The translations under genes were made by a program, and so were the position numbers. Positions 13,510 through 36,715 of a stretch of 64,000 nucleotides of DNA are shown in pieces. Numbering within the stretch: the first letter of the stretch is position 1; every line of letters begins with the position of its first letter. Below the pieces are notes generated by a model that saw only the letters and a program-made list of their open reading frames with translations, was not told the origin of the DNA and did not search any database. The DNA comes from a virus: positions 34,739 through 98,738 of IMG/VR virus record IMGVR_UViG_3300027714_000008. One strand, given 5' to 3'.

Positions 13510-13872
13510 TTAATCCTTGTCTGGTAGTACGTCTATGACGTCACCCTCTTTTTTCTGTAAGTCTGATAGCATTTTTTGTATCTCTACAGTAGACCCAACT
13601 AATAAATTATTAGTGATGCCACCAGCTGGAATATCAGAAGGGTCTTCCTTCTTAATATCTTTTTTCTTTTTGTGTAAATCTAATAGATTACCATTGACAT
13701 CTGCCATTGTTTTCATTAGGCCAGAAAGCACTTCAAATGCGCGAGGGTGTTCTGTTGATCTTGCAACTTCGATCATATCTTCTAAGGCTGCTGAACCTTT
13801 TACTAGGATGTCGTGGTAAGTTTGTCTTGCATACTCAAAATCATTATCTACATTATCAGATGAATCAATCAT
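13510..13872 (-). CDS. g16: Terminase small subunit gp16
   Basis: DFEYARQ, EHPRAFEV and NNLLVGST motifs. Confidence 0.93.
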   Translation of the reverse strand: MIDSSDNVDNDFEYARQTYHDILVKGSAALEDMIEVARSTEHPRAFEVLSGLMKTMADVNGNLLDLHKKKKDIKKEDPSDIPAGGITNNLLVGSTVEIQKMLSDLQKKEGDVIDVLPDKD

Positions 13873-14651
13873 GCGCTATCTAAAGCTCCATAGAATGTTG
13901 TCGTAAATCCATAATCACTATCTGGACTTGCGGATGCTGGGTTAGGTATCACTCTGATTGTTGAAACTAACTCATCAGAGTCTTTTATACCACTATTTAT
14001 AGTGTGTAATTTCATGTCTGCTTGACGTATAATCTTACCAGTTGTAACAGGACCATAGAAATTAATTTTCATTTCAAAGTCTAAAGTGTAAAGAATACTA
14101 CGTCTTTGCTCTAAAGCACCTTCATAGTCGTCTGTGAATGAAACACTCTGCAAAGAAATAGGGCTGTCTTCTAATATATCTTCACCTGCAATAGGCTTTA
14201 TTGTTAAAGTATATTGTGGAGCAAAGTAAGGAACAATCTGTTCAACTATTTGTAACGCATCATCTTGAGACTTTGCATAGATGTTTAATTGAAAGTTTAT
14301 ATTATAAGGTACTGGTGTTTTAACTTTGTTTCTATCGTAAACACTAGTGCCTGTAGTGTTAAACTGATTGACCTTACTTAATTGTCTGACTGGATCATAA
14401 ACAATATTAACAATCTCGAATGATATGCGAGGAAGTTTGATAGCCAATTGTCTTTCAGCATCTTCACCATTAGTCTGTGATCTAAGACGTTCAATAAAAT
14501 CACGTTTAGGCGCATATGTCAATGGTACTTTAACTTGACTTATTACTGCGCCAGCAGAGTTCTTACGTAACACATGTAAGTTATTAAACAGACTGCCAAA
14601 CACGGCAACTGATTTACGAATTCTTTGATGATAGAAATATGTACCAAACAT
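13869..14651 (-). CDS. g15: Tail sheath stabiliser gp15
   Basis: YFYHQRIRK, KVPLTYAPK and QIVEQIVPYFAP motifs. Confidence 0.95.
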   Translation of the reverse strand: MFGTYFYHQRIRKSVAVFGSLFNNLHVLRKNSAGAVISQVKVPLTYAPKRDFIERLRSQTNGEDAERQLAIKLPRISFEIVNIVYDPVRQLSKVNQFNTTGTSVYDRNKVKTPVPYNINFQLNIYAKSQDDALQIVEQIVPYFAPQYTLTIKPIAGEDILEDSPISLQSVSFTDDYEGALEQRRSILYTLDFEMKINFYGPVTTGKIIRQADMKLHTINSGIKDSDELVSTIRVIPNPASASPDSDYGFTTTFYGALDSA

Positions 14652-14654
14652 TAT

Positions 14655-15572
14655 TTAAGTCTCCACGTCACCAAATGGGTTGCTTTCAGAGAAGTCTAAG
14701 AAGCCACCAGCTATGGTTTTAAAATCAGCATTTTGTTCATCGTCAGAAATTCTATTATCCTCTACAACACCACTAGCCTGTACGACACCTTTTGCACCCG
14801 ATGTTAGACCTGTGATTGTTCCAGAGTCAAGGAATTCACGGAACTTACCATCTGTAGAACCAATGTGAGCCAAAGATAACACGCTATCAGAATCAGAAGC
14901 AAAGTTAGCCGCTGGTGCAAATGCGACGACTTCACCCCTCATAAATATTCCAAGGTCACTGTCAAGTGTCTGTGAAACGTTTTCGCCAACTTGGAACAAA
15001 GTTGCGCTTGATGAATCTTGATGTAATGTAAGATCCATTTGATAGGCACTATGCTTTTCAATATCATCAATAGCTTTGACACCTGTATCAAAATCTTCAT
15101 CATTGTATTCGAATAGAGAACAACGCATTTTAAATGTTGGTAGATTCTTAAGCTGATAAAAAGGCGATTCGTCTTCGACCTTTTGAATTTCAAAAGTAGA
15201 GTTTGACATAGGCAAATGTATTAAATCACCTTCTCTAGGTCTATAGAAAGCAATATCATTCTTACCGACTAATTGATCAAAGCGACGTCGTGCAACAATA
15301 AACGTTGCTTCGTCTCTTATCTCAACACCGAATTTTGAAAACAAGTCTCTTTCACCATCAAAACCTTCTAGGTTCTCAATATACATTTCAATCTTATGAG
15401 ATTTTTTAAATTTAGAAACAGAGTCGTCACCAAATATACGATCTTCGTTTACTAATTCACGAGGAATATAGAAAACGTCTTGACCATACATTTGTAGAGA
15501 CTCAATTATTATGTCTTCATATAATGTCTGTTCGCTTTTAACGCCGACATTGAAGTATGCATTGGTTGCCAT
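14655..15572 (-). CDS. g14: Neck protein gp14
   Basis: ESLQMYGQDVFYIPR, RPREGDLI and DFSESNPFG motifs. Confidence 0.95.
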   Translation of the reverse strand: MATNAYFNVGVKSEQTLYEDIIIESLQMYGQDVFYIPRELVNEDRIFGDDSVSKFKKSHKIEMYIENLEGFDGERDLFSKFGVEIRDEATFIVARRRFDQLVGKNDIAFYRPREGDLIHLPMSNSTFEIQKVEDESPFYQLKNLPTFKMRCSLFEYNDEDFDTGVKAIDDIEKHSAYQMDLTLHQDSSSATLFQVGENVSQTLDSDLGIFMRGEVVAFAPAANFASDSDSVLSLAHIGSTDGKFREFLDSGTITGLTSGAKGVVQASGVVEDNRISDDEQNADFKTIAGGFLDFSESNPFGDVET

Positions 15573-15573
15573 A

Positions 15574-16329
15574 TTATCCTACAAAGAAATCTGGTGGAAA
15601 TTCGTGTTCTAGTCGCATTGTTTCTTTTAGTGTTGCAATCTCGGCAGTAGCATCGTCATACAATTGTCTACCATTAAGAAGAACGCCGCCTGGAAGTTGC
15701 ATACCTTCAAACTTAATTAGGTTTGCACCCCATTGTTGTTTTATCAACTGTGTGGTGAAGTCTTTTACAAACATATCATTATAGACTGATGTGAAAGTTT
15801 CTGGATTAATTATGTTGTCTGTTTCAAGAACTACGTAATCACCAGCTTTAATAGATTTATCATTCATGTTACTAAACCACTTTAGACGATTCTGATGTCT
15901 ACGGAAATTTACTTGTGGCGTGCCAGTCAATTGACTTTCTAGTAAAGATAGATATTGTTGCATCTGTGTGAAGTAACCAAGATCACCTATAAAGCTACCT
16001 TGGTTTGCCACATCTTGTAGCATCAATTGATATTTAATACTAAAAAAGTTTCTTGAAACTGATGCACCAGTTTGTATTGGTAATGCTTTTATAACATACA
16101 ATATATTGGTAGGTAAAGTTATATATTCGTTTGTAATGTCTGTAGCAGTCATTAAATGAACATGAAAACCTCTTGATACTGCATCAGAATGAAACTCTGC
16201 ATAATACTGTAGAGCGTCGTCTATACGATCGTCTATTTGATCCTCGTCTACGTTAATTTCAATGACAGGAGCACCTAGCCTACGAAGAGCATGGTCTTGT
16301 AATTGTACTCTGCTTGTAACAATAGCCAT
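15574..16329 (-). CDS. g13: Neck protein gp13
   Basis: LRRLGAPVIEINV and KQQWGANLIKFEGMQLPGG motifs. Confidence 0.95.
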   Translation of the reverse strand: MAIVTSRVQLQDHALRRLGAPVIEINVDEDQIDDRIDDALQYYAEFHSDAVSRGFHVHLMTATDITNEYITLPTNILYVIKALPIQTGASVSRNFFSIKYQLMLQDVANQGSFIGDLGYFTQMQQYLSLLESQLTGTPQVNFRRHQNRLKWFSNMNDKSIKAGDYVVLETDNIINPETFTSVYNDMFVKDFTTQLIKQQWGANLIKFEGMQLPGGVLLNGRQLYDDATAEIATLKETMRLEHEFPPDFFVG

Positions 16330-16390: not shown

Positions 16391-19300
16391 TTAGTTTAAT
16401 AGGTTGCCAGCGGCATTATATACATTAATTCTATAATGAGAAGCCGCTTGTCCGTCTAAAGTACCAGCATTAACACCACTTGTGCCGTTGACATCAACTG
16501 TTCTAAGGGCAGTTAGTATCTGTGCGGCTGTCTGATCGGCTGTAGCACTTGATTCAATGCCGTCTAGTTTAGTACCATCGGCGGCAACGTCACGACCATC
16601 AACTGTTCCCGATGCGGCAAGGTTGACAACAGTTAACGTACCTGAGCTAGAATTAAAGGTAAGATTAGAACCACTCTTTGGCGGCAATTCGCCTGTCGCA
16701 CCAGTTGTAAATAATGGAAAACAAGTCGTATCACTTGATTCATCTGCTACTGTAACAGCAGTAGCAACAGCTGCTAAAGCAACATCAATATTAGCCGTAC
16801 CATTGAAAGATGTACCACCGATAGTTCTTGCAGTTGCTAATGCAGTTGCAGTTGCCGATAAATCTACTGCAATATTAGCACTACCATTAAATGATGTTCC
16901 ACCAATAGTCCTTGCAGTTGTTAAAGTGGCGGCTGAACCAGATGTGTTTTGATTACCAGTTGCATTAACACCAGCAAGGTTTATATTCGCTGATCCATTA
17001 AATGATACACCACCAATAGTCCTTGCAGTTGCTAATGTAGTTGCGGTATTCGCTAAACCCACTGCAATATTAGCACTACCATTAAATGATGTACCGCCAA
17101 TTGTTCTTGCAGTTGTTAGCGTAGCGGCTGAACCAGATGTGTTTTGATTACCAGTTGCATTAACACCAGCAAGATTTATATTAGCACCACCATTAAACGA
17201 TACGCCACCAATAGTTCTTGCAGTTGCCAATGTAGTTGCAGTTGCGGCATTACCAGTGACTTCACCAGTAAAATTAGTTGCTGTTATTTTACCTGTACTT
17301 GGATTGTAAGTAAGCCCTGTGTCATGTTTTATCGCCGTAACTGCGCCACTTGTTGCCGCGTCAAACTTAATTGTAAAGTTTGTGTTAGTTGATTCGTCTG
17401 CTGTTGTTACAGCACCAGCAGCTGCCCATGATAGTGTTTTGTCACCACTTGTTACTAAGGCTTGTCCAGCAGAACCATCTGCATTTGGCAATGTCCATAT
17501 AACGTTAGCGGATGGAGAAACTGGTTGACCAAATCCTACATAGTTACTTGCGTTACTGTCAAGGAACCTTTGTTCTGTTACTGCTGACACAAGTGATGTT
17601 AATACGCCTGAGCTAGGGTTATATGTTAAGCCAGTATCCGTCTCAATACCCTGTGTCCCTGTTGCACCATCTACGAATGTAGGAAATACTGTTTCATTGG
17701 CTGTATTGTTAGCAGTTGCCGTAATTGCAGTTCCTATTGCTGCAGTGCCAGATGTGTTTTGATTACCAGCAGCATTAACACCAGCAAGGTTTATATTCGC
17801 TGATCCATTAAAGGATACGCCACCGATTGTTCTTGGAGTAGCTAAGATGGTTGCAGTTGCCGCATTACCAGTTAATTCACCTGTAAGTGCGCCCTCAAAT
17901 GTACCAGCTTTAACAATACCCAACGTGACTGAACTATCAGCCATGTTTATAGTACCTGAAACATCAGAGTCGTAAGCGTTTAAGAATGTCCACTTAGTCT
18001 CACTCACATCAAAGAATAGACCCACGTGAGTGTGGCCTATACCTGAGCTACCAGTGTTTCTGTTTGTAAATATACCAGTATCAACATTGATAGGAGATGC
18101 TGAACCTAGCCATGCGTTATTTAATGTGTGACCAGTTACTGCACCAAATTCTACACTAATACCATTTGCTAATGTGTGCGCACTATCGTTAATTCTAATA
18201 TTTTCACCTAGGACAGTAGAAAATGCAGAGTCATAAGAAAACTTGAATGAGTCACCAGCCGAGTCTGCACTATCAATTGCAAGATAGAAAGCTCTGTTGA
18301 CAATATCTGTAAAGTGACCTTTAAGAACCGCATCATCAAGACCTGAACCTGTTACCAATGCAGTGTTTGCATCACCTATTGTATCACCTTGGTTAAGATT
18401 ATTAAATGCGCCACCAATATTGATATTCTGTGTGGATGCGTTTACTTGAGTACCTAAAACTGTTAAGTTATTACCAACAACCAAATTAGTGCCTATGTGA
18501 GCATCACCAATAGTTCTAAAAGTTTGAGTCGTATCATGGCTTAACTCGACCAGAATTTGTCCAGTGCTTGCATGACTTGTTAAAACACGACCAACTGTAA
18601 TTGGAAAGTTAGGGAATGAATTTTCTGTACTAGACAATGCACCAGCTGATGCTCCAAGGAATACAGCGGCATTGGCAGTCAAAGAAGACGTGTCGATGTT
18701 ATTTACTAGACCTGAGTTTGTTACGTACCCAAATGTGCCATTCTCAATATCATGGGTTGCAAGACCAGAAACTTCGTAGTGATCCGCGTTTGATCCGTTT
18801 GCAAGTCCGATTGTAGGTGTAGTACCTTGCACACCAACATAATAGACTGGTTTACCATCAAGGATTGTTGCACCAGATCCGTTATAAACTCTAGTAACTT
18901 GCTCTTGACCAACTTGTAAAGTCATAGCAGCTTCGTCGTTGTAGACTGCTAAAGCACCGAATGCTGAGTCGTAAAATACTCGACCTTCTGCATGTGCAGG
19001 GATAATACCAGAATAATCTAAGAAGCCTGGTGCAATTGAAGTGGCAGTGACAACATCGAATGTTACGTCGTCTGTTGTTGCAACTGCTTGACCAATAGCA
19101 ATGTCGTTGGCATTTACTGTGACACCAGTACCAGCACCAATGTTTAATGTGCGTGTAGCTGCAATAGTACCACCGCCTGTCAAACCTGCACCAGCAGTAA
19201 TTGTTACGCCGGTGTGATCAATATGTTCGTTTGCAACAAATCCACTTAGATTGTCGTGTACGATTTGTCCGTCATTAGTTGTGATGTTATCTGCATTTGC

Positions 19301-20269
19301 AGTTAAACCAGTACCAGCAATAACATTAAGTGTACGATTGGCGGCGATAGTACCACCGCCTGTTAAACCAGTGCCCGCAATAACAGAAACACCTGAGTGA
19401 TCGATATGCTCATTTGCAACAAATCCGCTTAGACTGTCATGTACAATGTCACCATCAGTTGTAGTAATCACACCAGTGCTATCATTGTATGTAATACCAG
19501 TACCACCACTTATAGCGTTCTTAGCGTCACTGTCTGCACGAGCAGTCGTGTAATAAAGGTTACTACCTTCTGTAAGATTAGCTGTAGTGAAAGGACCTAG
19601 TGTAGCAGTTGCAGTAAATGTACCACCATCTGCTGTACCAATTGTTAAGATGCCGTTACTACTATCGTATCCAAATGATGCAACACCTGCAACTGGAAAT
19701 ACTCCAGCAGAGTCTATTAGTCCTTGAGCGTTTACTGTAAATTTTGGAACTAAAGAACCAGAACCATAAGTACCAGCAGTCACACCTGTGTTTGTTATTG
19801 ATATTTTACCAGCGGCAGAGTCGTATGTAATTCCTGTGGAAGCTACTAGCTTGGCTCTTACTTCTGCTACACTAGGACCTGTATATGTTAATACGCCTGT
19901 TGCAGGGACATATGCAAAAGAACCATCTCCACCAGCGTCTGTTAGACTGATTGCGTTCTTTGCATCAGAATCAGCTCTTGCTGTAGTGTAGTATAGATTA
20001 TTACCTTCGCCTAAGTTGGTAGTGCTTTTTGTAGCTATTCGTACATCAAAGGCAGAGTCAACTCTTGATGTTGTATGATACAAATTGCTACTGCCTTCAG
20101 TAATCTCATCTGTATTATCCTTTGATGCTATTTGTGTAGCAACGTATGCTTGCGTAGCAACTGGAAGGTTTGCCTGAGTTATAATGCCACTTACGTTTAC
20201 TGAACTATCAAACGTTGAAGGTCCTTTGACTGTAATGCCATTCTTAACTATAAAATTCTTGTCTGCCAT
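16391..20269 (-). CDS. Long tail or neck fibre protein with internal repeats (1292 aa)
   Basis: Gly/Thr/Ala-rich, with three families of internal repeat. Confidence 0.85.
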   Translation of the reverse strand: MADKNFIVKNGITVKGPSTFDSSVNVSGIITQANLPVATQAYVATQIASKDNTDEITEGSSNLYHTTSRVDSAFDVRIATKSTTNLGEGNNLYYTTARADSDAKNAISLTDAGGDGSFAYVPATGVLTYTGPSVAEVRAKLVASTGITYDSAAGKISITNTGVTAGTYGSGSLVPKFTVNAQGLIDSAGVFPVAGVASFGYDSSNGILTIGTADGGTFTATATLGPFTTANLTEGSNLYYTTARADSDAKNAISGGTGITYNDSTGVITTTDGDIVHDSLSGFVANEHIDHSGVSVIAGTGLTGGGTIAANRTLNVIAGTGLTANADNITTNDGQIVHDNLSGFVANEHIDHTGVTITAGAGLTGGGTIAATRTLNIGAGTGVTVNANDIAIGQAVATTDDVTFDVVTATSIAPGFLDYSGIIPAHAEGRVFYDSAFGALAVYNDEAAMTLQVGQEQVTRVYNGSGATILDGKPVYYVGVQGTTPTIGLANGSNADHYEVSGLATHDIENGTFGYVTNSGLVNNIDTSSLTANAAVFLGASAGALSSTENSFPNFPITVGRVLTSHASTGQILVELSHDTTQTFRTIGDAHIGTNLVVGNNLTVLGTQVNASTQNINIGGAFNNLNQGDTIGDANTALVTGSGLDDAVLKGHFTDIVNRAFYLAIDSADSAGDSFKFSYDSAFSTVLGENIRINDSAHTLANGISVEFGAVTGHTLNNAWLGSASPINVDTGIFTNRNTGSSGIGHTHVGLFFDVSETKWTFLNAYDSDVSGTINMADSSVTLGIVKAGTFEGALTGELTGNAATATILATPRTIGGVSFNGSANINLAGVNAAGNQNTSGTAAIGTAITATANNTANETVFPTFVDGATGTQGIETDTGLTYNPSSGVLTSLVSAVTEQRFLDSNASNYVGFGQPVSPSANVIWTLPNADGSAGQALVTSGDKTLSWAAAGAVTTADESTNTNFTIKFDAATSGAVTAIKHDTGLTYNPSTGKITATNFTGEVTGNAATATTLATARTIGGVSFNGGANINLAGVNATGNQNTSGSAATLTTARTIGGTSFNGSANIAVGLANTATTLATARTIGGVSFNGSANINLAGVNATGNQNTSGSAATLTTARTIGGTSFNGSANIAVDLSATATALATARTIGGTSFNGTANIDVALAAVATAVTVADESSDTTCFPLFTTGATGELPPKSGSNLTFNSSSGTLTVVNLAASGTVDGRDVAADGTKLDGIESSATADQTAAQILTALRTVDVNGTSGVNAGTLDGQAASHYRINVYNAAGNLLN
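16790..17250 (-). repeat. 195-bp (65-aa) tandem repeat in the fibre gene
   Basis: GCGGCTGAACCAGATGTGTTTTGATTACCAG occurs at 16929 and 17124; ARTIGGxSFNGxANI occurs 5 times, with a further copy near 17750-17860. Confidence 0.9.
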
Positions 20270-20288: not shown

Positions 20289-20915
20289 TTATGTGATAAT
20301 TGTTTGGTGGGCTTTAACTAATATTGTATTTGCAGGATTACGTGTAAATTTAACTTCAATTGTGCCTGAGTTATTTGTTACAGCTAAAGATCCTAGATCA
20401 CTATCACCAGTATGTACTATACCATATTCTGTACTTGCTATATTTGTTCCGTCAAATGCAGTCAATATTTTAGAGATTTGTGTCTCTGTAGAACTGCCAT
20501 TGTATGCTGAAATATTAAATTCTATTGCAGTGGATGCACCACCTGTTACATATGATGCAACGATTGTAGCTGATCCGCTTGTTACTGATACACCAACTGG
20601 TTGTGCTTTAACTATACCATTCTTAGTATAAAGAGTGCCAATGTAAGCACCTCTAAATCTTATATCATCTGTGCCAATATCAATCGCATCTGAATCAGAG
20701 GCAAATAATGCACCAGAAATAGTTGCACTATCAAGTGTTTTATTAGTTAGTGTTTGTGCACCCGACGTTGTAACAGATTCAAATCCACCAGCGGTCGAAC
20801 CATTATGTACTCTAATACTATTTAATTGATTATCATATGAGATTTCACCAGCAGCCCCAGTAAAGTTATTATTCTGAGCTGTTGTGCCTCGTCTAAACTG
20901 GACTACTGTAGGCAT
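20289..20915 (-). CDS. Virion/fibre protein with Mtd_N-like N-terminus
   Basis: VQFRRGTTAQ...TGAAGEISYD...RVHNGSTAGG. Confidence 0.7.
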   Translation of the reverse strand: MPTVVQFRRGTTAQNNNFTGAAGEISYDNQLNSIRVHNGSTAGGFESVTTSGAQTLTNKTLDSATISGALFASDSDAIDIGTDDIRFRGAYIGTLYTKNGIVKAQPVGVSVTSGSATIVASYVTGGASTAIEFNISAYNGSSTETQISKILTAFDGTNIASTEYGIVHTGDSDLGSLAVTNNSGTIEVKFTRNPANTILVKAHQTIIT

Positions 20916-20933: not shown

Positions 20934-21419
20934 CTATACACTTGAATCTACGCCAAGATCTATTGTTGCTAACGAACCTACAGGATTCATACATTCAAAT
21001 GTTCCGCCTGTTGAAATTCCAAACGCATCAATTTGACCTGTTGAGTCTACTGTTCCATAATTACCTTCTGGAAAGTTAACTGCTCCAACGCCTGTTATGA
21101 CTGCGTTATCTACATATATTTTATTTACCGCATCATTATTATCAGAAGGCGAAGATAAATTAACAATCCTAAGACTGTTCATGTTTATCTGACCAGTCAT
21201 TGTTCCACCAGATGTGAGCAATGTTTCTGATTGTGCCGAATCTATTTGAGCCTTTATAGCATCAGAATCAGTAAAAAATTTAACTACATTATCGGCATTT
21301 TTATAAAAAAGTCTTCCGTCTTTATAGTTAATAGCCAATTCACCATAGGCCAAATCGCCAACAAGAGGTATCTTGCCAGCCGAATCTGATTTAAGTAATC
21401 TAATCTCTACGTTAGACAA
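20934..21419 (-). CDS. Fibre-associated protein
   Basis: N-terminal IRLLKS..P..L.YGELAINYKDGRLF and an adhesin-like DAVNKIYVD motif. Confidence 0.7.
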   Translation of the reverse strand: MSNVEIRLLKSDSAGKIPLVGDLAYGELAINYKDGRLFYKNADNVVKFFTDSDAIKAQIDSAQSETLLTSGGTMTGQINMNSLRIVNLSSPSDNNDAVNKIYVDNAVITGVGAVNFPEGNYGTVDSTGQIDAFGISTGGTFECMNPVGSLATIDLGVDSSV

Positions 21420-27425: not shown

Positions 27426-27435
27426 CTTTTATTCC

Positions 27436-27756: not shown

Positions 27757-27757
27757 G

Positions 27758-27973
27758 TCATAACTTCTCTATAATCTGGCTTAACATCATTTTAATATCT
27801 TTTACATCACTTTTAAGCTGGTTAATTTCTTCCCTTTCAGCCGCCTTAGTCTCTCTTTGGTTTACCCTGAGGTTCTTAATGCGATTGATCTCAGTGCTAT
27901 TTATATTAATTATAGCACCTGTATTTTTATCTCTTGCTAATCCGCTATGACCTTCTACCTTCACTAAATCCAT
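27758..27973 (-). CDS. Conserved small coiled-coil protein
   Basis: VKVEGHSGLARDKNTGAIIN...EINQLKSDVKDIKMML. Confidence 0.75.
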   Translation of the reverse strand: MDLVKVEGHSGLARDKNTGAIININSTEINRIKNLRVNQRETKAAEREEINQLKSDVKDIKMMLSQIIEKL

Positions 27974-29574
27974 TATGTGCCTAATGCAATAGTTCTTAAC
28001 GCTTTAAATCTAGGTACGTCTGTTGACGATGTTGAACGCATTACTATTTTAATTTGGTAAGTAGTAAATGGTGCAAGGTCTCCTTGATATGTTCCACCTA
28101 TGACATATTTATACTCTCTGAATACGTTATAATTTGTATCAATAGGAAGCGTATTATGATTTGAATCAGGTTCTACTTTTGATGCCTCTATCCAAGCAGT
28201 GTCTTCAATGCTTACGTCACCACCAGCATCTAACACTTTATAGAAAAGATCAAAGTCTGTACCCTGAGGTCTATTGACATCAACAAGGACTTTAATACCA
28301 GTTGCAGGTTCAGCTAATAAAACAGGTATTGATATGTGTTTAGCCAAGGTAGATCCAAAGTTTGCAACTGTCTCAGCTACATAGCTTAATGGGACGTTAA
28401 ATCCAGTTGTTGCCGCTGAATCTGGATTATCAATAATGTTGTGGACTGATATAACAGAAGCTCTTTGTAAGTCTACAGAAGGAGCCGCATATGAACTTGT
28501 TGTCACTAACTCCAAATCAATAGTATAAGAAGACCTAGTAAGGGCTGTGTCTCTAACAGCAGTCGCAATAACAGCTGGAGAATTTAAGAACGTATCCATT
28601 TTGTTTGCTGTTGCGTGTTTAGGTAAAGTCCCATAAGCAGTTTCACCACCACCAAAAGATTTAGAAGTTGTTAGACCAGCTACCATGCGATGATTTGTGC
28701 CATTTGGTTGAAGTATTTCAATATTAGGCTTAAAGCTATCTATGATATATTGTTGTGTAGCAAGGATGCTATTACCACCACCGAATATAGCTGAGTCTGC
28801 CGAACTGTCCATTTCAAATTTATAGCCAGTACCATCAATGTGAGTAACAGCTCTTGATCCTAAGATACTTGCACCTAAAACACCATTGATGCTAGTAGCA
28901 GAATCTAACCCACTTGAGTCAGAAGATATATGTACGACGTCATTTACTTGAAAGCCGTGGTTAGGATGTGCAACAGTAACAGTTGCATCACTTGCCGCAA
29001 ATAGAAACGGATTACTTGTTAATGATTTTACAGGTGGCGGAGCCGCATTAAATCTTACTAATGCGTTAGTGCCTGTGAAGTTGGCTCTATATACTTTAAA
29101 AGTTAAATCACGAGTCTGATCCGCTTCAAATACTCTACCATTAGCAGACTTAAAGAATATGCCTGCGTATGGATCTGTTTGAAGTCTTTCTGTTGTTGAA
29201 CCTAGTTTGAAGTCACCTAACTTAGCAGTCCACACTTGATATGCATTACCAAGAGCATTTGATTGTATGCAAATAGCAAAGTCTTTGCCACCTTCAAGGT
29301 ATACTGGTTCTTCAAAAGTGAAAGTTGTTTCTGTAGCCGCTGTAGCAGACACAGTTATGTCACTTGCCGCTTTAAAAGAGACACTGTTTTCGATTATCTT
29401 ACTAGAATCAGGAACACCATTAACAGTAGGTCTTATACTAAGTTGAACAGGATAGTCTGCATCTGCCGCTTTAGTTGCAAAATAGATACCTATTTTAGTT
29501 ATGTATATTCCTGAAACCTGATTGACCCTAAACGTTTGGGCAATCGGTTGGATTAATTCAGAAGTAGATGACAT
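27973..29574 (-). CDS. Virion structural protein (VrlC-like C-terminal part)
   Basis: QPIAQTF, GIYITKIGIYF, FEEPVYL and FQIKIV-like/VPRFKALRTIA motifs. Confidence 0.75.
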   Translation of the reverse strand: MSSTSELIQPIAQTFRVNQVSGIYITKIGIYFATKAADADYPVQLSIRPTVNGVPDSSKIIENSVSFKAASDITVSATAATETTFTFEEPVYLEGGKDFAICIQSNALGNAYQVWTAKLGDFKLGSTTERLQTDPYAGIFFKSANGRVFEADQTRDLTFKVYRANFTGTNALVRFNAAPPPVKSLTSNPFLFAASDATVTVAHPNHGFQVNDVVHISSDSSGLDSATSINGVLGASILGSRAVTHIDGTGYKFEMDSSADSAIFGGGNSILATQQYIIDSFKPNIEILQPNGTNHRMVAGLTTSKSFGGGETAYGTLPKHATANKMDTFLNSPAVIATAVRDTALTRSSYTIDLELVTTSSYAAPSVDLQRASVISVHNIIDNPDSAATTGFNVPLSYVAETVANFGSTLAKHISIPVLLAEPATGIKVLVDVNRPQGTDFDLFYKVLDAGGDVSIEDTAWIEASKVEPDSNHNTLPIDTNYNVFREYKYVIGGTYQGDLAPFTTYQIKIVMRSTSSTDVPRFKALRTIALGT

Positions 29575-29616: not shown

Positions 29617-32600
29617 TTAATCCCACTTGGTGCTGTAATGTGCTGCAGCTTTGACAGCATCATACTTATCTGTACCGCCTATCTCACCATCATCATAACT
29701 GGCCCCATTTCCAGCAAAATCACGATGGTCGTTATCGCCAGAACTAGTGTTGTTGTAACTAGGATCTTGTGTAGTTTGAACTGTTGTTTGAATAGCGTGC
29801 CTTCTAGTGTGTTTAATATCTTCTTGATAATGTTGCATAGTACCAGTTGAAACAAAGTCAGACGATGCGTATGATGTTGCGTTAACTCTATTTAGCTCAC
29901 TAATATCTATAAGCGTAAATTGTCTTGTTCCTGTTAAGAATTTAGTTGCATTCTTATTTGGCACAAAGATAATACCTTCAATTGCACCATTAGCATCTGA
30001 TAATATGGATGCAGTCTTACCGCCTAAAGTAGGTGGGAATTCTGTTTCATTGATGTACTTATCACCAGGATCAAGATAATTAGAATTAGTCGCTTGTGCC
30101 GCAAAGTATTGGAACTTTCCTGAACCTGTTTGAACAAAAGCAGAAATATCAGTTTCGTCATAGAATGGGAAGTAACGAGTATTAGGTCTCAAGCCTTGCG
30201 CTTTAAAGAATATAAATCGTTCTCTTTGGTATTGAATAGATGTTTCATAAAGTATTTCGTCTGCCATTGATGTCACGACTGTTTCACTCTTGACAATTGT
30301 ACTTGTTACAGTAGAAGTCGTTCGACCATTCTTTGAAGTCTTACTTTCAGAGTAACCGGCTTTTAATGAATCTGCTTGTACACCTGACCAGTTAAAGCCC
30401 CAATCATTCCACAAGGAAGTGTTTGCTGGGTCTAGCTTTGTTCCGCCGTCAACAATCTTAGCAGGTAAACGAGAGGTGTCGAACCATGTATCAGTAGATG
30501 GTGACATTTTAATATGCCCAATAGTCACACCTAAGTTAAATGCGTTTACTGATGTTGCACTGGATGCCTGAGTATTTGAAGCATATACAACTTCTTCATA
30601 AAGAGGGTATACTGTATCGCCTATTAAGGACACACGATCAGAAGCATCAGAGTCATAAACAAGTTCAGAACTGTTTGCAACAAATGATGGTCTTAATTCT
30701 CTATTGAATACATCAGTAGATGCACGATAATCTAATGCAGTTCTTAAACTTTGTGAGTGGTCTGTAAAGTTGTCGGCAGTTAGGCCAACTTTTAGACGAT
30801 TAACACCAGCCGAGTCAAGAACTTCTAAAGTAGCAGTTTCTAGCTCAAGCATGTTTAATGTAGTAATTTCTTCAATCTTGTCCATACGTGTTTCAAGATC
30901 AGATATATCTCTCATAGTGTAACGTCTGTTATCAACATACGTCATAGATACATCGCTATCATTCAATGTGTAAGGATTTATAGATAGTCTAGCAAGTTCC
31001 ATTGCATTATCAGGAACGGATGGGTGTATAGGAAATAATGACCTTTCACCAGCAACCGCTTCAAATGTGCCTGCTTTATTCAATACAATTCTGTAACCTT
31101 GACCAAGATAGTAAGCAATGTCTGTAGTAATAAGATCAGTGTTAGCTGGAATTTCTACAGTTACCGCACCAGTTGAAGTAAAGTCAGATGCAGTGTTAGC
31201 ACGTAAAGGTCTAAAGTCTAATACGTCTCTTAAAGAAACAGTCTCACCATTCTTTTGTCTGTATGATGGAATGTCTTCATATTCAACTTGACCAGTGTAA
31301 GAATTTACAGCAAAGAAGTCTCCGCCAGCTCCGTGTGCAAAGTGATCAAAGTTAACATAAACATCACCGCTTGGAGCAGAAAAGCCAGCACGTAATGTTA
31401 GAATGCCTTCCGAATAGAAGTTATCTCTTTGTCCATTGTCAAGTACATAATAGTCTGTAATGACATTACCAGCAGATGTAGCATCTCGTACTTCATTAAT
31501 TCTAAATATGTCACCACGCTCTAGCTGAACTGTGTCGTCACTTTCAGGAGAAATAGTAGCCGTTCTATTTGTTAATGCTTTAGTTTTTACTGTGGCAGCA
31601 CCTTTGTTGACATAGGCTAACAATGAAACAGCAGAAGATTTTTGAAGCGTTCCTAATGTAACACCTGTAGTTCCGTTACCACCAGCAGTCACAGTAATCG
31701 CACTTTCTACACCAGAAGAATCTGTTGATAGTAACCAATTTGTAGAGTTGGCAAAAGTCTCGCCTGTTGCAGACAATGAAAGAGCCAATGTAGCGTTAGC
31801 CGCTGCAGTACCAGTGAAACGTCTTTGTGTCGTCAATGATATGTCAGTTATGGCAGAAGGTCTGATACCTGATAAAGGGAACAATAAGTTATTATTAGAA
31901 GTGTCTTTTATTACAGCAACACTATTTTCAAGAACAAGATCAGCATAGTTAGTAGTGCTAAGACCTATACTTCTAACAGCACTAAACTGTTTAGCCGAAG
32001 CCATTACAACATCAAAGATGTATATTCTATAATACAAACCAAATTTCTCAATAGACCTTATTCTAGCCGTACCAATAGTTGCACCACCATGAGTAACAGC
32101 CGATCTTAAATTGACATTAGCCATAGTTGTAATGTTTGGCAAGCCTAACTTAGTCAAAGATAAAATGTAATTACCATACTCTGAGGCAACAACATCATTG
32201 TTTACTGTAGTAGTTGTTCTTGGCTTGTCAATAGGAATTCGTATTGGGTTATAAGATTCGAACCTTTTACCTTTTACATAAGCAATACCAGCATTGATTG
32301 TTATATCAAGTTTAGTTGCATCAGAATCGTTGGCTTGGGTTTTTATTATGAATGGCTTAACTGTATAGTTACCAGACTCTTCGAATGTCCTTTGAGCCAA
32401 GATGTCGCCTACGACACTCAAGCTCCTATCACCAGCAGACTTAACAGCCGCCATTAATCCATTGACAATATCAAAGGATGGAATGAATGTAGTACCAGCA
32501 GAAACATTAGCTTGTAATGCCAGTGCTAATGTAATCTTATATCTGTCTGCACCAGGAGCAGTCAAGTTTGGTGTGTCTGTTGAATTGTCGTAAAGTGCAG

Positions 32601-33279
32601 TATCATCAGCCGCTTTAACAACTTGTTCTGAAACAGTAAAACCAACTACAGCCGTAGGTGTACTTGAATACTTAGAAATAACAATGCTTTGCGCATTAGA
32701 CTGAACGAAGTGACCGCTTACGAAGAATACTGATTCTTTTACCGAGAGCCTTGTACCACGCCCAACAGCTGGATTTGCAGTAGTATTAGTAGATTGTACT
32801 TGTAAGTTTGTTCCACTGACATCGCCATTGATAACTTCACCTGGTGTTAAACGAACAGGTGTGGTGGTACCAGAAATTGAATTGTTATTTACATACTCAA
32901 CAAAGATTGTTGCAGGGTCACCATCAGCCGCTGCTTTGATTTCAACAATGCGAACTTTAATAGTAGATGTTTGTCCAGTAAAAATTTCACCGATTAAAGC
33001 AGAGAACGTTGTAGGTAAAGCATATGTAGTAGTATCTAGTTTACCAAATTCAAATCTTGTATCTAATTGAATACCACCCGAATGGACAGGCGCACCTTCT
33101 TTAAATACAAAACGAGCATGTTGCTCTGCTTCTCTTTGAATAATCGTTTGAAGTTGGGTTAACTCTCTTGCTTGAAGTGCTGAACCCGAATTAAAAAGTA
33201 TTCTGTGATAATTATCGCTGTCTGCGAAATCATCTCTGTATGTCTGACTAAAGCTGGTGCTTGTAACGTTGCTTACCAT
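29617..33279 (-). CDS. Large virion protein (DUF4815/VrlC-like)
   Basis: YRDDF..NYHRILF..LQARELTQLQT, APGADRYKI, RTFEESGNY and RYTMRDI motifs. Confidence 0.8.
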   Translation of the reverse strand: MVSNVTSTSFSQTYRDDFADSDNYHRILFNSGSALQARELTQLQTIIQREAEQHARFVFKEGAPVHSGGIQLDTRFEFGKLDTTTYALPTTFSALIGEIFTGQTSTIKVRIVEIKAAADGDPATIFVEYVNNNSISGTTTPVRLTPGEVINGDVSGTNLQVQSTNTTANPAVGRGTRLSVKESVFFVSGHFVQSNAQSIVISKYSSTPTAVVGFTVSEQVVKAADDTALYDNSTDTPNLTAPGADRYKITLALALQANVSAGTTFIPSFDIVNGLMAAVKSAGDRSLSVVGDILAQRTFEESGNYTVKPFIIKTQANDSDATKLDITINAGIAYVKGKRFESYNPIRIPIDKPRTTTTVNNDVVASEYGNYILSLTKLGLPNITTMANVNLRSAVTHGGATIGTARIRSIEKFGLYYRIYIFDVVMASAKQFSAVRSIGLSTTNYADLVLENSVAVIKDTSNNNLLFPLSGIRPSAITDISLTTQRRFTGTAAANATLALSLSATGETFANSTNWLLSTDSSGVESAITVTAGGNGTTGVTLGTLQKSSAVSLLAYVNKGAATVKTKALTNRTATISPESDDTVQLERGDIFRINEVRDATSAGNVITDYYVLDNGQRDNFYSEGILTLRAGFSAPSGDVYVNFDHFAHGAGGDFFAVNSYTGQVEYEDIPSYRQKNGETVSLRDVLDFRPLRANTASDFTSTGAVTVEIPANTDLITTDIAYYLGQGYRIVLNKAGTFEAVAGERSLFPIHPSVPDNAMELARLSINPYTLNDSDVSMTYVDNRRYTMRDISDLETRMDKIEEITTLNMLELETATLEVLDSAGVNRLKVGLTADNFTDHSQSLRTALDYRASTDVFNRELRPSFVANSSELVYDSDASDRVSLIGDTVYPLYEEVVYASNTQASSATSVNAFNLGVTIGHIKMSPSTDTWFDTSRLPAKIVDGGTKLDPANTSLWNDWGFNWSGVQADSLKAGYSESKTSKNGRTTSTVTSTIVKSETVVTSMADEILYETSIQYQRERFIFFKAQGLRPNTRYFPFYDETDISAFVQTGSGKFQYFAAQATNSNYLDPGDKYINETEFPPTLGGKTASILSDANGAIEGIIFVPNKNATKFLTGTRQFTLIDISELNRVNATSYASSDFVSTGTMQHYQEDIKHTRRHAIQTTVQTTQDPSYNNTSSGDNDHRDFAGNGASYDDGEIGGTDKYDAVKAAAHYSTKWD

Positions 33280-33291: not shown

Positions 33292-34641
33292 TTACAATTG
33301 AATTACGATTTTAATATCTTCGGTTTGGTCTGTGGCTCTAGTAATAGCGGCTCTATTTTCAACATACAACACTTCACCTGAATTTATGTTAATGTTTGGA
33401 GTTGTCCATGTACTTGCACTATCTAGTGTTCCAGCACCATTACCATCTGTCTCAGTCAAGGCTTCGGCAGTTGTAAATGCAGTAAAGCCTGTGTCCTCTG
33501 TCTGATGGTAACGTATTATCTTAGTCGATGTGCTATATGTATCAACGTATGCTTTAGCACCAGAAGACCCACCTAAGATAGTATTATCAGGAGTGAATGC
33601 TGTCGTCTGTGATGCTACTAATAAACTTTTAAGAGCAAATCCAGATGCCGCTGTAAAGTCGGAATCAGTTGTAGGGACTAATGGATTTTTAATTAAAGCT
33701 ACTTGACGGAAATCATTATCAGTTATAAATGTGTTTGTTTCATTGCCAGCTGGTTTTGTATTGAACATAACAGCCTTTGCTCTAAGGTCATTTAAAGCGT
33801 TTGCACCAAAACCCTTATTAGGAGAAAGTACAGCACGTGCCGTAGCAGAACCAGCACCGAATGTTATAGTAGCTTTAGTGAAATCATGTCCGTGTCTAAT
33901 GCCACCAGTACCATTTGAATCTAATAGGATGTCTACGACTGCGCCACCACTTATAATTGCCGTGGCTGTACAACTGTCACCATCACCAACTACTGTGACT
34001 GTAGGAATTGATGAATAACCAGTACCACCAGATACAACACGAATACTACCGATTTGACCTGATATTGCCGCTGTCTGTACGCCCTTTTGTTCTACTAAAG
34101 CCGCCGCTGACGAACTGTCTGTTGTCCCAATCAATTTTACAGGAACAAAGTTTGCAGAAAGAAACTTGTTTGCGTCTGTAGCAGAAAGGGTGTAAAGGAA
34201 TTTCCAAGTGTAACCATCGGCTAATAAGAATGATGATGTTGCAGAGCCAGTTGGTTCTACAGTAGATGCTACAGCCGCACCAGTCGAGTCTTTACCTTGT
34301 TGTAGGCAAATATACACTGCATTATCGTCTGTGATAACAAAGTATGGTGTAGTAGGATGCGAAGCTATGTTATCGTCCCAACCATCATAAAGTGTACCAG
34401 CTGTCCAGTTATTTCTAGGAACAACATAAGAAACGTCTTCACCAGATTTAATTGATTGAAGTTGCAATCTTAAATTACGTTCTTCTCTTAAAGTATTAAC
34501 AGGTGTTGGAGCTGTGTCTGAACTATCCCAATCGATAGAGTTACCTATACCGATATAATAAGATGCTGCTGTTGTTCCAACTTCTGCGATAAGACTATCA
34601 AGAAGTACCCTTTTTAAACTGTCAGTAATAATGCCTGTCAT
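33292..34641 (-). CDS. g8: Baseplate wedge gp8
   Basis: VVPRNNWTAG, VYICL, DGYTWKFLY and YVENRAAITRATDQTEDIKIVI motifs. Confidence 0.9.
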   Translation of the reverse strand: MTGIITDSLKRVLLDSLIAEVGTTAASYYIGIGNSIDWDSSDTAPTPVNTLREERNLRLQLQSIKSGEDVSYVVPRNNWTAGTLYDGWDDNIASHPTTPYFVITDDNAVYICLQQGKDSTGAAVASTVEPTGSATSSFLLADGYTWKFLYTLSATDANKFLSANFVPVKLIGTTDSSSAAALVEQKGVQTAAISGQIGSIRVVSGGTGYSSIPTVTVVGDGDSCTATAIISGGAVVDILLDSNGTGGIRHGHDFTKATITFGAGSATARAVLSPNKGFGANALNDLRAKAVMFNTKPAGNETNTFITDNDFRQVALIKNPLVPTTDSDFTAASGFALKSLLVASQTTAFTPDNTILGGSSGAKAYVDTYSTSTKIIRYHQTEDTGFTAFTTAEALTETDGNGAGTLDSASTWTTPNININSGEVLYVENRAAITRATDQTEDIKIVIQL

Positions 34642-34653: not shown

Positions 34654-35643
34654 TTAAGCTACTGTAACGCTTGATTGATTACCAACGAGATACCAATTAG
34701 CACCATCCCAGATAACTGTTGCGCCGTCATATTGAGCTAGCGCAAATGTAGAACCCTGTGCATAATTTGCAGGGGTTACAGTAGCTACTCCAGCTCCTTT
34801 GTTTGTAAATATTTTAGATTCACCGACTGTTGTACCATCGGCTAAAGACACTGCTAATGCAGAACCTTTATTACAGATTATATAGCCTACTGTTGCAGAG
34901 GCCGCACCATTTGCAGTTATTGTTGCAGATGTGATTGCGTGCTTATTAAGTACAGCAGAACCAGTACCCTTACCACCAATTGTAACATTAACATTAGTAT
35001 CACCACCACTTGCAATAATCGTAGGACTATTACCTGTTGCGGCATTGGCTAATGTTACTTCATTAACTGCTGAACCTGTTGCAGTTACTTTAACTAACTC
35101 ATTACCATTAGTGTCATTTAAAGACGTGCCATACTTACCTGTGTTTATTACAGGAGATGTCAAAGTCTTGTTAGTAAATGTCTGTGCAAACCCAGCAAAA
35201 GCAAACGTATCATTTCCAGCCAACAAAGGTAAAGTCACAGTCCTATCAGCACTCAATTCACTTACAGCAAACACATACTGGTGATCGGCAGACGTGTCAT
35301 TAATTTGTGGTGTTGTTATGACAGGAGAAGTCAAAGTCTTATTTGTTAGCGTTGAAGTTCCTGTATCTAATGTTACAGTGCCACCAGCATCGGGTATTGT
35401 TATTGTTCTGTCAGCAGTCGGGTCTGTTACAAGTAATGTTGTTTCAAAGCTATCGGCAGATGCGCCTTCAAAGACAATAGAGTTTGAAGTCAGAGTGATA
35501 CCAGCCGAAAGAACATCACTGTCTCCGCCTAATTTCTGAAAAAGTTCTACAAAATTGGAATTAATTTTAGTACCAGCAGAACGTAAAGTTTCGCCTGTGC
35601 CGTCATTAGCAGCCGCTCCAATCGATATGTTTTGCCTAGTCAT
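34654..35643 (-). CDS. gp9/gp10-like baseplate fibre connector
   Basis: N-terminal QNISIGAAANDGTGETLRSAGTKINSNF; TLTNKTLTSPVI repeats. Confidence 0.75.
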   Translation of the reverse strand: MTRQNISIGAAANDGTGETLRSAGTKINSNFVELFQKLGGDSDVLSAGITLTSNSIVFEGASADSFETTLLVTDPTADRTITIPDAGGTVTLDTGTSTLTNKTLTSPVITTPQINDTSADHQYVFAVSELSADRTVTLPLLAGNDTFAFAGFAQTFTNKTLTSPVINTGKYGTSLNDTNGNELVKVTATGSAVNEVTLANAATGNSPTIIASGGDTNVNVTIGGKGTGSAVLNKHAITSATITANGAASATVGYIICNKGSALAVSLADGTTVGESKIFTNKGAGVATVTPANYAQGSTFALAQYDGATVIWDGANWYLVGNQSSVTVA

Positions 35644-35675
35644 TAAATTTTAATCCTTTAAGCTTTAATTAATGT

Positions 35676-35683
35676 TATTTATA
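35676..35683 (-). promoter_or_regulatory. Late promoter TATAAATA
   Basis: Exact motif in an intergenic gap. Confidence 0.75.
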
Positions 35684-35719
35684 ACAGTTATATGAGTTGA
35701 TTTGCCAAGTCTTATTGTT

Positions 35720-36715
35720 TTATCTAGTTAATATACCACCAGCTGAGTCTGCAAATACAGAGCCATGCTTGCCGTCAAAGTACGATTGATCCATAGTCTC
35801 GAATGTGTTAGAGAATTTAACCGCTTTAATTGTTCCGTCACTATCTTCATCGAACCTAGGTGAGTTGGCGTCAATAGCATCTTCAATATCGTTGTACATA
35901 GCATCAAACTGTGCAACAGTAAGTTCGCTGTATACCTTAACAGTTGCATTAAGATCAACACGTTCTTTATTAAGACCTGAATCGCTTGTATCATCAAAGA
36001 TACCAGTGATAGAAGTGAAGGCAGTCATACTTAATGGAGTGCCTGTAAGTTGTAATGTAACTTGACCAGCATCACTATCTAAGATAGCCAAAGGTTGAGT
36101 TCCTAAGTTTAGGTTTCCTAGACTTTCAAGAATAACTTCACCACCAAGAAAAAAGCCTGATGGATGCACAAACGATTTGTATAAGTCTCTCCACTTTGCA
36201 ATTGGTACTGATGAACGAACTAATATAGATAATACTTGATATAGCGCACCATTCTGAATATATCTCAATGATTCAGAACCAATTTTAGATTCACCTACAA
36301 TAAACAGGTTAGCTTTAGGATAAACAATCTCAGGTTGCTCTCCATAGAACGTTCTAAAGAAAGTTTCAGATGAAGATAAAGAACCTTTAATTCTATAGTT
36401 ATCAGCAAGCATACCAGCTATCAGCCGTGGGTCTTTAAAGTAATCGGCAGTCACAAGACCTTGACCGATTTCTCCGAATATCTGATTTAGATAGGTAAGT
36501 TCTGTTGCCCTTACGTCTCTTAACTTATATAAGTTCTGTATATCATTATCAAATCCATGATTTGCATCAGAATCCATATAGTCGTAATACTTCTCAAGAA
36601 AACTTACTAGCTTAGGATACTCGGCTATGTAGTGTTCAGGAAGAACTTCTCGGATCTTGCTAGTCGATAGATTCTGACCTCTGCGATCTTCATCAAGTAA
36701 TGTTTGTTGAACCAT
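35720..36715 (-). CDS. Baseplate wedge protein, short gp7-like
   Basis: YPKLVSFLEKYY, YRIKGS and FVHPSGF motifs; lies between g6 and g9/g8. Confidence 0.7.
   Translation of the reverse strand: MVQQTLLDEDRRGQNLSTSKIREVLPEHYIAEYPKLVSFLEKYYDYMDSDANHGFDNDIQNLYKLRDVRATELTYLNQIFGEIGQGLVTADYFKDPRLIAGMLADNYRIKGSLSSSETFFRTFYGEQPEIVYPKANLFIVGESKIGSESLRYIQNGALYQVLSILVRSSVPIAKWRDLYKSFVHPSGFFLGGEVILESLGNLNLGTQPLAILDSDAGQVTLQLTGTPLSMTAFTSITGIFDDTSDSGLNKERVDLNATVKVYSELTVAQFDAMYNDIEDAIDANSPRFDEDSDGTIKAVKFSNTFETMDQSYFDGKHGSVFADSAGGILTR

Follow-up and report, generated by a model that had tools for sequence, protein, structure and literature searches.

In Bacteroidota, protein O-glycosylation takes place at the motif D-(S/T)-(A/I/L/V/M/T and others), and only proteins exported from the cytoplasm serve as substrates (PMC8729774). 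In staphylococci, SdgB and SdgA attach O-linked N-acetylglucosamine to adhesins made of Ser-Asp repeats, and the minimal substrate of SdgB is DSD (PMC8561734, PMC3794999). For mycobacteriophage Che8 and its relatives, phage-encoded glycosyltransferases are reportedly proposed or shown to decorate structural proteins, resulting in a glycan coat (Freeman et al. 2023, cited in PMC11256854). The pelagimyophages and cyanomyophages carry a host recognition cluster whose transferases were read as modifiers of the host O-chain, and no motif in virion proteins was described there (PMC7029224). Here we analyzed 64,000 nucleotides of an uncultured marine T4-like myovirus (positions 34,739–98,738 of IMG/VR record IMGVR_UViG_3300027714_000008). 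This whole stretch is hereafter called the window, and coordinates count from its start. The outer virion proteins of this phage are enriched in the dipeptide Asp-Ser (DS), and its predicted late fibre operon encloses a cassette (genes A to E) encoding predicted glycosyltransferases of the GT-A type. All genes of this finding lie on the (−) strand (Table 1).

Pooled over 16 outer virion proteins, DS was found 83 times against 41.6 expected (z = 6.4), ranking first of the 400 dipeptides. The excess was directional: the controls SD (50 vs 41.6), DT (41 vs 50.8), NS (33 vs 41.6) and DG (36 vs 38.1) were flat, and DA was not above expectation. With Ala, Ser, Asp or Gly as the next residue (DS[ASDG]), the motif occurred 63 times against ~13 in the same proteins. 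Shuffling each protein separately gave the clearest excess in the tail fibre of 1292 amino acids (aa; 18 vs 6.1, p < 0.0005), followed by gp8 (9 vs 2.9, p = 0.001), the 330-aa protein (8 vs 3.0, p = 0.005), the 533-aa protein (8 vs 3.1, p = 0.007) and the 161-aa protein (5 vs 1.4, p = 0.008). The excess was only marginal in gp14, gp15 and the small proteins, and these shuffles detected no enrichment in the DUF4815 protein (7 vs 7.8), the gp9/10-like protein (2 vs 1.4), the 401-aa protein or gp13. In gp14, five of the six DS lie at residues 186–249, past the conserved domain, and the sixth is at residue 50. An earlier sequence-only reading of this DNA had counted DS by hand. Its counts were exact for the five proteins with p values above, as well as for the 118-aa protein (3), the 106-aa protein (3), the 331-aa wedge protein, which it called gp7-like (5), and gp14 (6). 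Similarly, we found 0–2 DS in each of the inner and hub proteins, and GDSS, DDSS and KDSS in the variable loop of the capsid protein gp23, both as that reading had described. Measured against composition-shuffled controls, the excess is real, acts at the level of the protein and is confined to outer or peripheral virion proteins.

Shuffling inside segments of 10, 20 and 40 residues left DS at 83 against 46 ± 6, with a maximum of 70 in 1000 shuffles, and DS[ASDG] at 63 against 17 ± 4. Because the excess survives this procedure, the clustering of Asp and Ser in loops is not its cause. Together with the flat SD, DG and NS counts, these shuffles ruled out a locally D/S-rich composition. The dipeptide is encoded by 11 different codon pairs, and TCN codons account for 57% of the serines that follow Asp compared with 75% of serines elsewhere, indicating selection at the protein level. 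A DNA motif, GANTC, which arises when GAT or GAC is followed by TCN, was also rejected as the cause, as TCN is rarer after Asp and GANTC shows no surplus over the length of the window. Its count did not exceed the mononucleotide expectation in almost any 4-kb bin (for example, 2 vs 13 at 1–4000 and 4 vs 13 at 52001–56000), a scarcity that may reflect avoidance of a CcrM-type site. Within the outer genes, GANTC fell 62 times in codon frame 0, six times in frame 2 and never in frame 1. In the non-virion proteins of the genome the DS ratio was 0.70 and so was the SD ratio. Since the two are equally depleted, a specific avoidance of the sequon genome-wide was rejected.

The context of the DS sites is loose, yet real: −1 is held by Tyr or Leu and +2 by Asp, Ala or Ser, Gly is enriched at +3, and hydrophobic residues follow at +7/+8. 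Over 79 sites, which do not form tandem repeats, the +2 residue was Asp in 21 (4.1-fold enriched), Ala in 20 and Ser in 15.

The whole record measures 98.7 kb, with an estimated completeness of ~59% (CheckV). Its closest sequenced isolate is Phage C48C1 (Kyanoviridae; capsid protein 68%, gp15 56% and gp8 37% identical), followed by cyanophages and Pelagibacter phages. The contig also carries a CsgG curli-secretion gene (PF03783, E = 1e-55) at contig positions 1905–2543, upstream of the window. CsgG/CsgF curli genes are a feature of pelagimyophage groups (PMC7029224). CsgG is the best hint of the host, and a SAR11-like host is therefore plausible and more likely than one from Bacteroidota.

To place the DS excess among its relatives, we profiled in full three outgroup genomes (C48C1, pelagiphage Mosig and cyanophage ACG-2014b) and one large in-clade genome (G001, 152 kb), and pooled 80 loci fetched from IMG/VR, in which more than 589 contigs match gp8. 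The 120 best metagenomic homologues of gp8 (49–100% identity) had 4–11 DS each, compared with ~3.4 expected. Across the pooled loci, DS was enriched 2.2-fold in gp8, 2.1-fold in gp9/10 and 1.9-fold in the 331-aa protein, whereas gp6 (0.5) and the inner baseplate genes upstream (0.58) were DS-poor, and DT in gp8 stood at 0.57-fold over the clade. In G001, whose gp8 is 48% identical, the excess was confined to the outer baseplate and the fibres. Three G001 fibre proteins had 40 vs 12.9, 20 vs 5.7 and 5 vs 1.3 DS, and its pooled outer proteins had 128 vs 60 (z = 8.8). These fibres are not orthologous to those of the phage studied here, yet they are richer in DS. In 120 clade orthologues of the capsid protein, the variable loop of ~85 residues contained 406 DS against 146.7, and the rest of the protein 43 against 133 (0.32). 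This depletion outside the loop is much stronger than the genome baseline of ~0.7. The capsid gene of G001 (110764–112097) is read as two open reading frames (ORFs) of 236 and 107 aa, ~300 bases apart; misassembly, a frameshift or inserted sequence may lie behind this.

The outgroups behaved differently. The conserved non-fibre virion proteins had 35 DS vs 16.5 expected in this phage and 28 vs 15.1 in G001, compared with 9 vs 12.1 in C48C1 and 14 vs 12.8 in Mosig. No general DS excess was present in the orthologues from C48C1, Mosig and ACG-2014b, which ruled out the excess as a general property of T4-like fibres. The 1292-aa fibre contains a Y-D-S-x-x-G hairpin motif and an EGxNLYYTxxR-x-DS motif. 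Where such motifs are common to both sides (EGxNLYYTxxR, a hairpin of the form aromatic-x-x-x-x-Gly, and SGD-x in the capsid), the clade has DS and C48C1 has NA, DN, DG, RSRAA or GDAG. The capsid variable loop in C48C1 and Mosig is shorter or has other residues at the DS motifs. The DS excess is thus a lineage-specific trait of this clade. An unbiased scan of the outgroups for other enriched dipeptides or gapped dipeptides found only repeat-driven signals, in C48C1. The homologue of the 401-aa protein in C48C1 is a giant of 3347 aa, and its repeats (GxY, FxG, YxR) dominate the dipeptide statistics of that phage.

The best reading of these data, though we would not count on it, is that DS is a recognition tag for modification of the serine, with a sugar as the likeliest group. 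That the serine is modified at all, that the group is a sugar, and which enzyme would be the writer are matters of inference. By this proposal, a clade of uncultured marine T4-like phages, resembling the pelagimyophages, would have accumulated Asp-Ser plus a small residue (Ala, Ser or Asp, less often Gly or Thr) as a surface tag. The tagged parts would be the capsid variable loop, an insertion in the sheath, the C-terminal extensions of the neck proteins, the outer wedge (gp8, gp9/10 and the 331-aa protein) and all fibre proteins. The tag would act as the recognition motif for post-translational modification of the serine, most likely cytoplasmic O-glycosylation. A soluble enzyme that the phage makes late in infection would carry this out, and the virion would end up coated with sugar.

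The Bacteroidota system, which the sequence-only reading had invoked as the precedent, fits these data poorly. Both motifs place Asp directly before the hydroxy-amino acid that is, or here may be, modified, and a small or aliphatic residue after it. However, the Bacteroidota motif accepts Thr, whereas DT is under-represented here, both in the pooled outer proteins and in gp8 of the clade. In addition, Asp is the commonest residue at +2, and CsgG points to a SAR11-like host. T4-like virions assemble in the cytoplasm, in contrast to the exported substrates of Bacteroidota. Because it acts on exported proteins only and accepts Thr, the Bacteroidota system itself is very unlikely to be the agent here. 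SdgB is a soluble glycosyltransferase that acts on Asp-flanked Ser, and here Asp is the residue most enriched after DS (21/79). SdgB differs in having a GT-B fold with a DUF1975 insertion, whereas the neighbouring enzymes here are predicted to be of GT-A type and no GT-B enzyme was seen in the cassette. Its substrates are long tandem SD repeats; the sites here are isolated, and Ala and Ser are about as common at +2 as Asp. The mycobacteriophages are alike in that they reportedly encode their own glycosyltransferases for virion proteins. They belong to another phage family with another host and other enzymes, and their modification has been demonstrated, whereas the one here is proposed from sequence.

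There are also signs that selection acts on Asp and Ser together. When the alignments of gp8, gp9/10 and the 331-aa protein were restricted to their variable columns, Asp at position i and Ser at i+1 occurred in the same sequence 984 times, whereas the column frequencies predicted 745, ranking second of 220 dipeptides, a count that is inflated by kinship among the sequences and for which the other dipeptides serve as the control. The corresponding ratios were 1.00 for SD, 0.84 for DT and 0.71 for DA. Several loops retain DS although its exact position slides between orthologues. The structural setting of the sites was taken from the secondary structure of a model or of the sequence. In the AlphaFold2 (AF2) model of gp8 (mean predicted local distance difference test score, pLDDT, 82), seven of the nine DS sites are in coil, one is at a helix start and one is inside a helix. 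In the 161-aa protein and in a 415-aa protein of G001, DS recurs along stretches that look helical by sequence. DS is thus found in coil, hairpin turns, helix starts and helix interiors, which is evidence against a single structural role.

Several points weigh against the tag reading. The clade has no cultured member, and gp8 of the nearest isolate is only 37% identical. The sequence D-S-(D/S/A)-G is near the optimum for a type I beta-turn, and structure could therefore account for part of the signal. A number of DS sites in gp8 and the capsid protein also keep the same position across orthologues, which is what one would see for structural residues. In an alternative that we consider rather unlikely, nothing would be attached, and DS-small-(Gly) would just be the form that exposed turns, Asx/ST motifs and helix N-caps usually take in the beta-rich outer proteins of this clade. 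It could have become fixed through common descent, because modules were shuffled among fibre genes, or because hydrated, acidic surfaces were favoured. The sequence context (hydrophobic or aromatic at −1, small at +2, Gly at +3, hydrophobic at +7/+8) fits a strand-turn-strand, the hairpin Y-D-S-x-x-G-x-Phi-x-Phi recurs, and the coil that holds seven of the nine gp8 sites lies between strands. Many sites also keep their position over orthologues at 50% identity, different fibres have modules in common (the 330-aa protein and the 1292-aa fibre among them), and no writer enzyme emerged among the genomes compared. What structure alone does not explain is that the capsid loop, sheath, gp8, gp14, gp15 and fibres have all moved to DS in one clade while the outgroups differ. 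Neither does it account for the shortage of Thr and Asn, which are the common structural substitutes (DT 0.57 in clade gp8), for the DS sites inside helices, or for the even higher DS content of the non-orthologous G001 fibres. A recognition tag explains the convergence of unrelated proteins in one clade, the disfavour of Thr and Asn, the rich non-orthologous fibres and the helix sites. It also has precedents: SdgB and the Bacteroidota system for glycosylation of a serine that follows Asp, and Che8 for virion glycosylation by phage enzymes.

The genes involved are transcribed in the order gp6, 331-aa wedge protein, gp9/10, gp8 and the DUF4815/VrlC-like protein, which is split into 1220 and 533 aa. 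The 71-, 106- and 401-aa proteins come next, followed by E, D, C, B, A and the 118-aa fibre-assembly-like protein. The fibre proteins of 330, 161, 208 and 1292 aa, gp13, gp14 and gp15 complete the series. Fibres and cassette therefore sit between the VrlC-like protein and gp8 (29617–33279, 33292–34641) on one side and gp13/gp14 (14655–16329) on the other, and the region is the "host recognition cluster" of pelagimyophages and cyanomyophages. It has the same place, several fibres and GT8-type transferases, and CsgG is found elsewhere on the contig, all as described for those phages. A difference is that cultured Mosig has the cluster and no DS excess. The T4 late-promoter motif TATAAATA matched 18 times in the window against 8.0 expected, mostly just upstream of structural genes, including (−)-strand positions 39116, 35676, 28106, 27898, 22864, 21463, 13994, 11236 and 8870, and these motifs probably mark out the late transcription units. 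Genes E to A overlap or nearly abut. Motifs flank them upstream (27898, 28106) and downstream (22864), and none lies inside the cassette, which makes late co-expression with the fibres likely. The transferases of predicted GT-A type are embedded among the fibre genes, as the sequence-only reading had noted, in an operon predicted to be late.

From sequence and model, A and B are predicted to be retaining GT-A (GT8-like) transferases. The DLD motif of A is invariant over 12 homologues. A had no Pfam match, but its AF2 model, which is reliable for the N-terminal 190 residues, retrieved GlyE (5gvv), alpha3GalT, glycogenin, LgtC and UGGT in a Foldseek search (E ~1e-6), with a probability of 1.00 to GT8/GT6/GT24. 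B matched the Pfam family Glyco_transf_8 with E = 7e-4 (19.6 bits, under the curated cutoff of 24.3) and is homologous to the A family (hhalign 94.5%). D is probably a nucleotide-sugar transferase, judging from its DAD motif and its Atlas neighbours. It had no Pfam or PDB match, and a related-loci search with D alone returned no match. The possibility that D is a homologue of the A family was rejected, as the hhalign result was not significant. C may adopt a double-stranded beta-helix fold like that of 2-oxoglutarate (2OG) oxygenases; its Atlas leads scored 0.87, below the reliable range (<0.9). Of the three GT-A transferases and one oxygenase proposed earlier, A and B therefore stand as GT-A enzymes, D has a DxD motif and a language-model lead, and the oxygenase, C, is without a family match.

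The remaining points against the tag reading concern the writer. Clear orthologues of C, D and E stand in unchanged order in C48C1, which is DS-poor, whereas G001, which is DS-rich, lacks them; the whole cassette is therefore not a conserved writer, and it was rejected as such on gene content. B-like genes are present in DS-poor Mosig, which has a much larger sugar cassette in the same place and no DS excess. A-like genes are present in every phage examined, including the DS-poor ones. Among the genomes compared, we found no enzyme whose presence matches that of the tag, and the GT8 genes of this region have been read as host O-chain modifiers (PMC7029224). Cassette content also varies widely among DS-rich contigs. 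The sequence-only reading had held that the phage evolved sequons on exposed surfaces for its own machinery and that this cassette is the machinery. The first half survives in so far as the enrichment is real and clade-specific; the second does not for the cassette as a whole, which fails to track the motif when orthologues from phages with and without it are compared.

Within the cassette, only the A family of GT8-like enzymes is a plausible candidate for the writer. It is the sole cassette enzyme that is widespread in the DS clade: all four of the larger records have it, and so do 11 IMG/VR loci that extend as far as the enzyme block. In a tree, the A genes of the clade, from the fibre region, are set apart from their C48C1 and Mosig homologues, which sit nearer to B (support 83/83). 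As a further point against the tag reading, this grouping is only moderately supported, and the A protein of this phage is on a long branch. Alternatively, the writer may lie in the ~40% of the genome that is absent from the contig.

The variable gene content is also what would be expected if the cassette acted on glycans of the host envelope (O-chain, capsule), for superinfection exclusion or to prevent progeny from sticking to debris, with the DS tag a neighbour by accident of a hypervariable region. We regard this as rather unlikely, whatever the DS tag proves to be. The region between VrlC and gp14 is a hypervariable island with fibres and GT8 transferases (PMC7029224). Cassette content differs among DS-rich phages, with C, D and E also found in DS-poor C48C1, and G001 and Mosig carry sugar-nucleotide enzymes (carbamoyltransferase, epimerase, PfkB kinase) of the kind typical of polysaccharide pathways. 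However, the genes are packed tightly on the fibre strand with late motifs only upstream, and the timing that this suggests would suit virion assembly better than an early shielding of the host surface. Small soluble GT-A enzymes, with no membrane or lipid-carrier partners detected, would make an incomplete O-antigen pathway. Action on host glycans also leaves the DS tag unexplained.

A fourth possibility, which appears improbable, is that DS is read by something other than a glycosyltransferase. The readout could be a phospho-glycerol or other phospho-form added from a nucleotide-activated donor, phosphorylation, docking of a chaperone or assembly factor, or binding of divalent cations. The non-structural genes common to the contig and G001 and absent from C48C1 and Mosig encode a 136-aa cytidylyltransferase-like protein, a 199-aa protein and a few small ORFs, which are not sugar-to-protein transferases. 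An amidase-bearing baseplate protein is likewise common to the contig and G001 and absent from both complete outgroups. The 136-aa protein is encoded at contig positions 20746–21156 (−), outside the window (PF01467, E = 1e-14), and is 80% identical in G001, far above the usual 50–60% of core genes. The fibre-assembly-like 118-aa gene adjoins the cassette, but it also occurs in DS-poor phages, with conserved counterparts in C48C1 and Mosig as well as in G001. If DS served to bind cations, it should be seen throughout the marine phages and not in a single clade. In the 98.7 kb at hand of this ~59% complete genome, we detected neither a kinase nor a phospho-transferase.

G001 has a second, diverged cytidylyltransferase-like copy in its fibre region, a few genes away from a PfkB sugar kinase. 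Together the two might supply ADP-heptose or some other activated donor, as the halves of an HldE-like pathway that has been split. A Maf-type flagellin glycosyltransferase (PF01973, MptE-like) had no match in this contig, ~59% complete as it is. G001 has a weak match (E = 0.0015–0.019), and that gene has a 46%-identical homologue in DS-poor C48C1, so that these genomes lend no support to a Maf-type enzyme as the companion of the tag. Outside its fibre region, at 25335–29224, G001 contains a second sugar-modification cluster, in which a sulfotransferase and a methyltransferase gene are accompanied by two GT25 genes, one GT8-like gene and an ORF with weak resemblance to MptE/Maf; this contig has homologues of none of them.

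The region with its GT8 genes was described before (PMC7029224), whereas for the Asp-Ser motif and its link to the virion surface we found no published description in the literature searched. Nor, to our knowledge, do accounts of the mycobacteriophages mention a short sequon distributed over many of their virion proteins. A more far-reaching version of the tag reading is that, in this abundant oceanic clade, the whole outer surface is coated by a glycan or another group on the serines of Asp-Ser-(small), put on by a phage enzyme in the cytoplasm; we hold this as tentative and somewhat doubtful. Should it be true, no tailed phage of Gram-negative hosts would have shown a modification system of this kind before, directed by a sequon and spread over the virion, and it would have reached the Asp-Ser logic independently of both the O-glycosylation of Bacteroidota and the SdgB of staphylococci. 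Modified serines would mean that the particles of many marine myoviruses bear a sugar or other coat that annotation misses, with possible effects on adsorption, on how they stick to marine gels, on grazing and decay, and on whether host defences recognize them. A countable sequon would allow modification to be predicted in thousands of metagenomic contigs and the writer to be sought by phylogenetic profiling, and the glycosyltransferase-rich host recognition cluster, now assigned to modification of the host O-antigen, would be read differently. Even with nothing attached, it is unusual for a directional dipeptide bias to span a clade and yet be restricted to exposed virion surfaces, and such an evolutionary signal calls for an explanation.

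Table 1 Features with or without the Asp-Ser motif, cassette genes and promoter motifs (window coordinates; DS counts are observed vs expected)
Feature	Position	Strand	Evidence and DS content
Major capsid protein gp23	3420..4775	(-)	3 DS-S motifs at residues 130, 148 and 163, in the variable surface loop
Tail sheath gp18	9432..11171	(-)	DS 5 vs 3.4, four within residues 111-167; weak excess taken alone
gp15 tail-sheath stabiliser	13869..14651	(-)	PF16724, E 2.7e-70; DS 4 vs 1.3, all in the C-terminal part
gp14 neck protein	14655..15572	(-)	PF11649, E 2e-42 over residues 4-180; DS 6 vs 2.8
gp13-like head-tail adaptor	15574..16329	(-)	phrog_211, E 4e-38; zero DS
1292-aa tail fibre	16391..20269	(-)	DS 18 vs 6.1; DS[ASDG] 14 vs 2.4
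208-aa fibre protein, Mtd_N domain	20289..20915	(-)	PF18454, E 3.6e-9; DS 3 vs 1.1
161-aa fibre-like protein	20934..21419	(-)	DS 5 vs 1.4, some in a stretch helical-looking by sequence
330-aa fibre-like protein	21475..22467	(-)	DS 8 vs 3.0; DS[ASDG] 7 vs 1.2
118-aa protein, tail-fibre-assembly-like	22477..22833	(-)	phrog_1084, phrog_3304; DS 3 vs 1.0
Protein A, predicted retaining GT-A glycosyltransferase	22867..23649	(-)	phrog_1962, E 2.6e-9; DLD motif
Protein B, predicted GT8-like GT-A glycosyltransferase	23619..24284	(-)	DID motif; PDB 5gvv, E 0.005
Protein C	24281..24985	(-)	No Pfam or PDB match; WHNN, i.e. HxN instead of HxD
Protein D, nucleotide-sugar transferase candidate	24989..25732	(-)	DAD motif; Atlas neighbours Nucleotid_trans/GT8, score 0.97
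Protein E, 156 aa	25713..26183	(-)	Linked to C and D in C48C1 and in loci L008 and L066
401-aa structural protein, Tyr-tetrapeptide repeats	26220..27425	(-)	Not enriched, DS 1 vs 1.8
106-aa fibre-associated protein	27436..27756	(-)	DS 3 vs 1.1; clade family DS-rich, 43 vs 18.7
Two T4-type late-promoter motifs TATAAATA	27898-27905, 28106-28113	(-)	Nearest upstream of the 106-aa and 401-aa genes and E-D-C-B-A
533-aa protein, C-terminal part of VrlC-like proteins	27973..29574	(-)	DS 8 vs 3.1
1220-aa DUF4815/VrlC-like baseplate protein	29617..33279	(-)	PF16075, E 2e-47; DS 7 vs 7.8, DS[ASDG] 6 vs 2.5
gp8 baseplate wedge	33292..34641	(-)	PF09215; DS 9 vs 2.9
gp9/gp10-like wedge protein	34654..35643	(-)	PF07880; DS 2 vs 1.4, clade family 2.1-fold enriched
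331-aa baseplate wedge subunit	35720..36715	(-)	PF23786; DS 5 vs 2.4, DS[ASDG] 5 vs 0.7

Two further observations were made in the window. With no homologue in G001, C48C1 or Mosig and no further queuosine-pathway genes seen in the window, a QueC-like PP-loop gene of 211 aa (11249–11884 (−); PF06508, E = 4e-9) is located between the large terminase and sheath genes. Additionally, the 401-aa protein contains two arrays of tetrapeptide repeats, each repeat with a Tyr.

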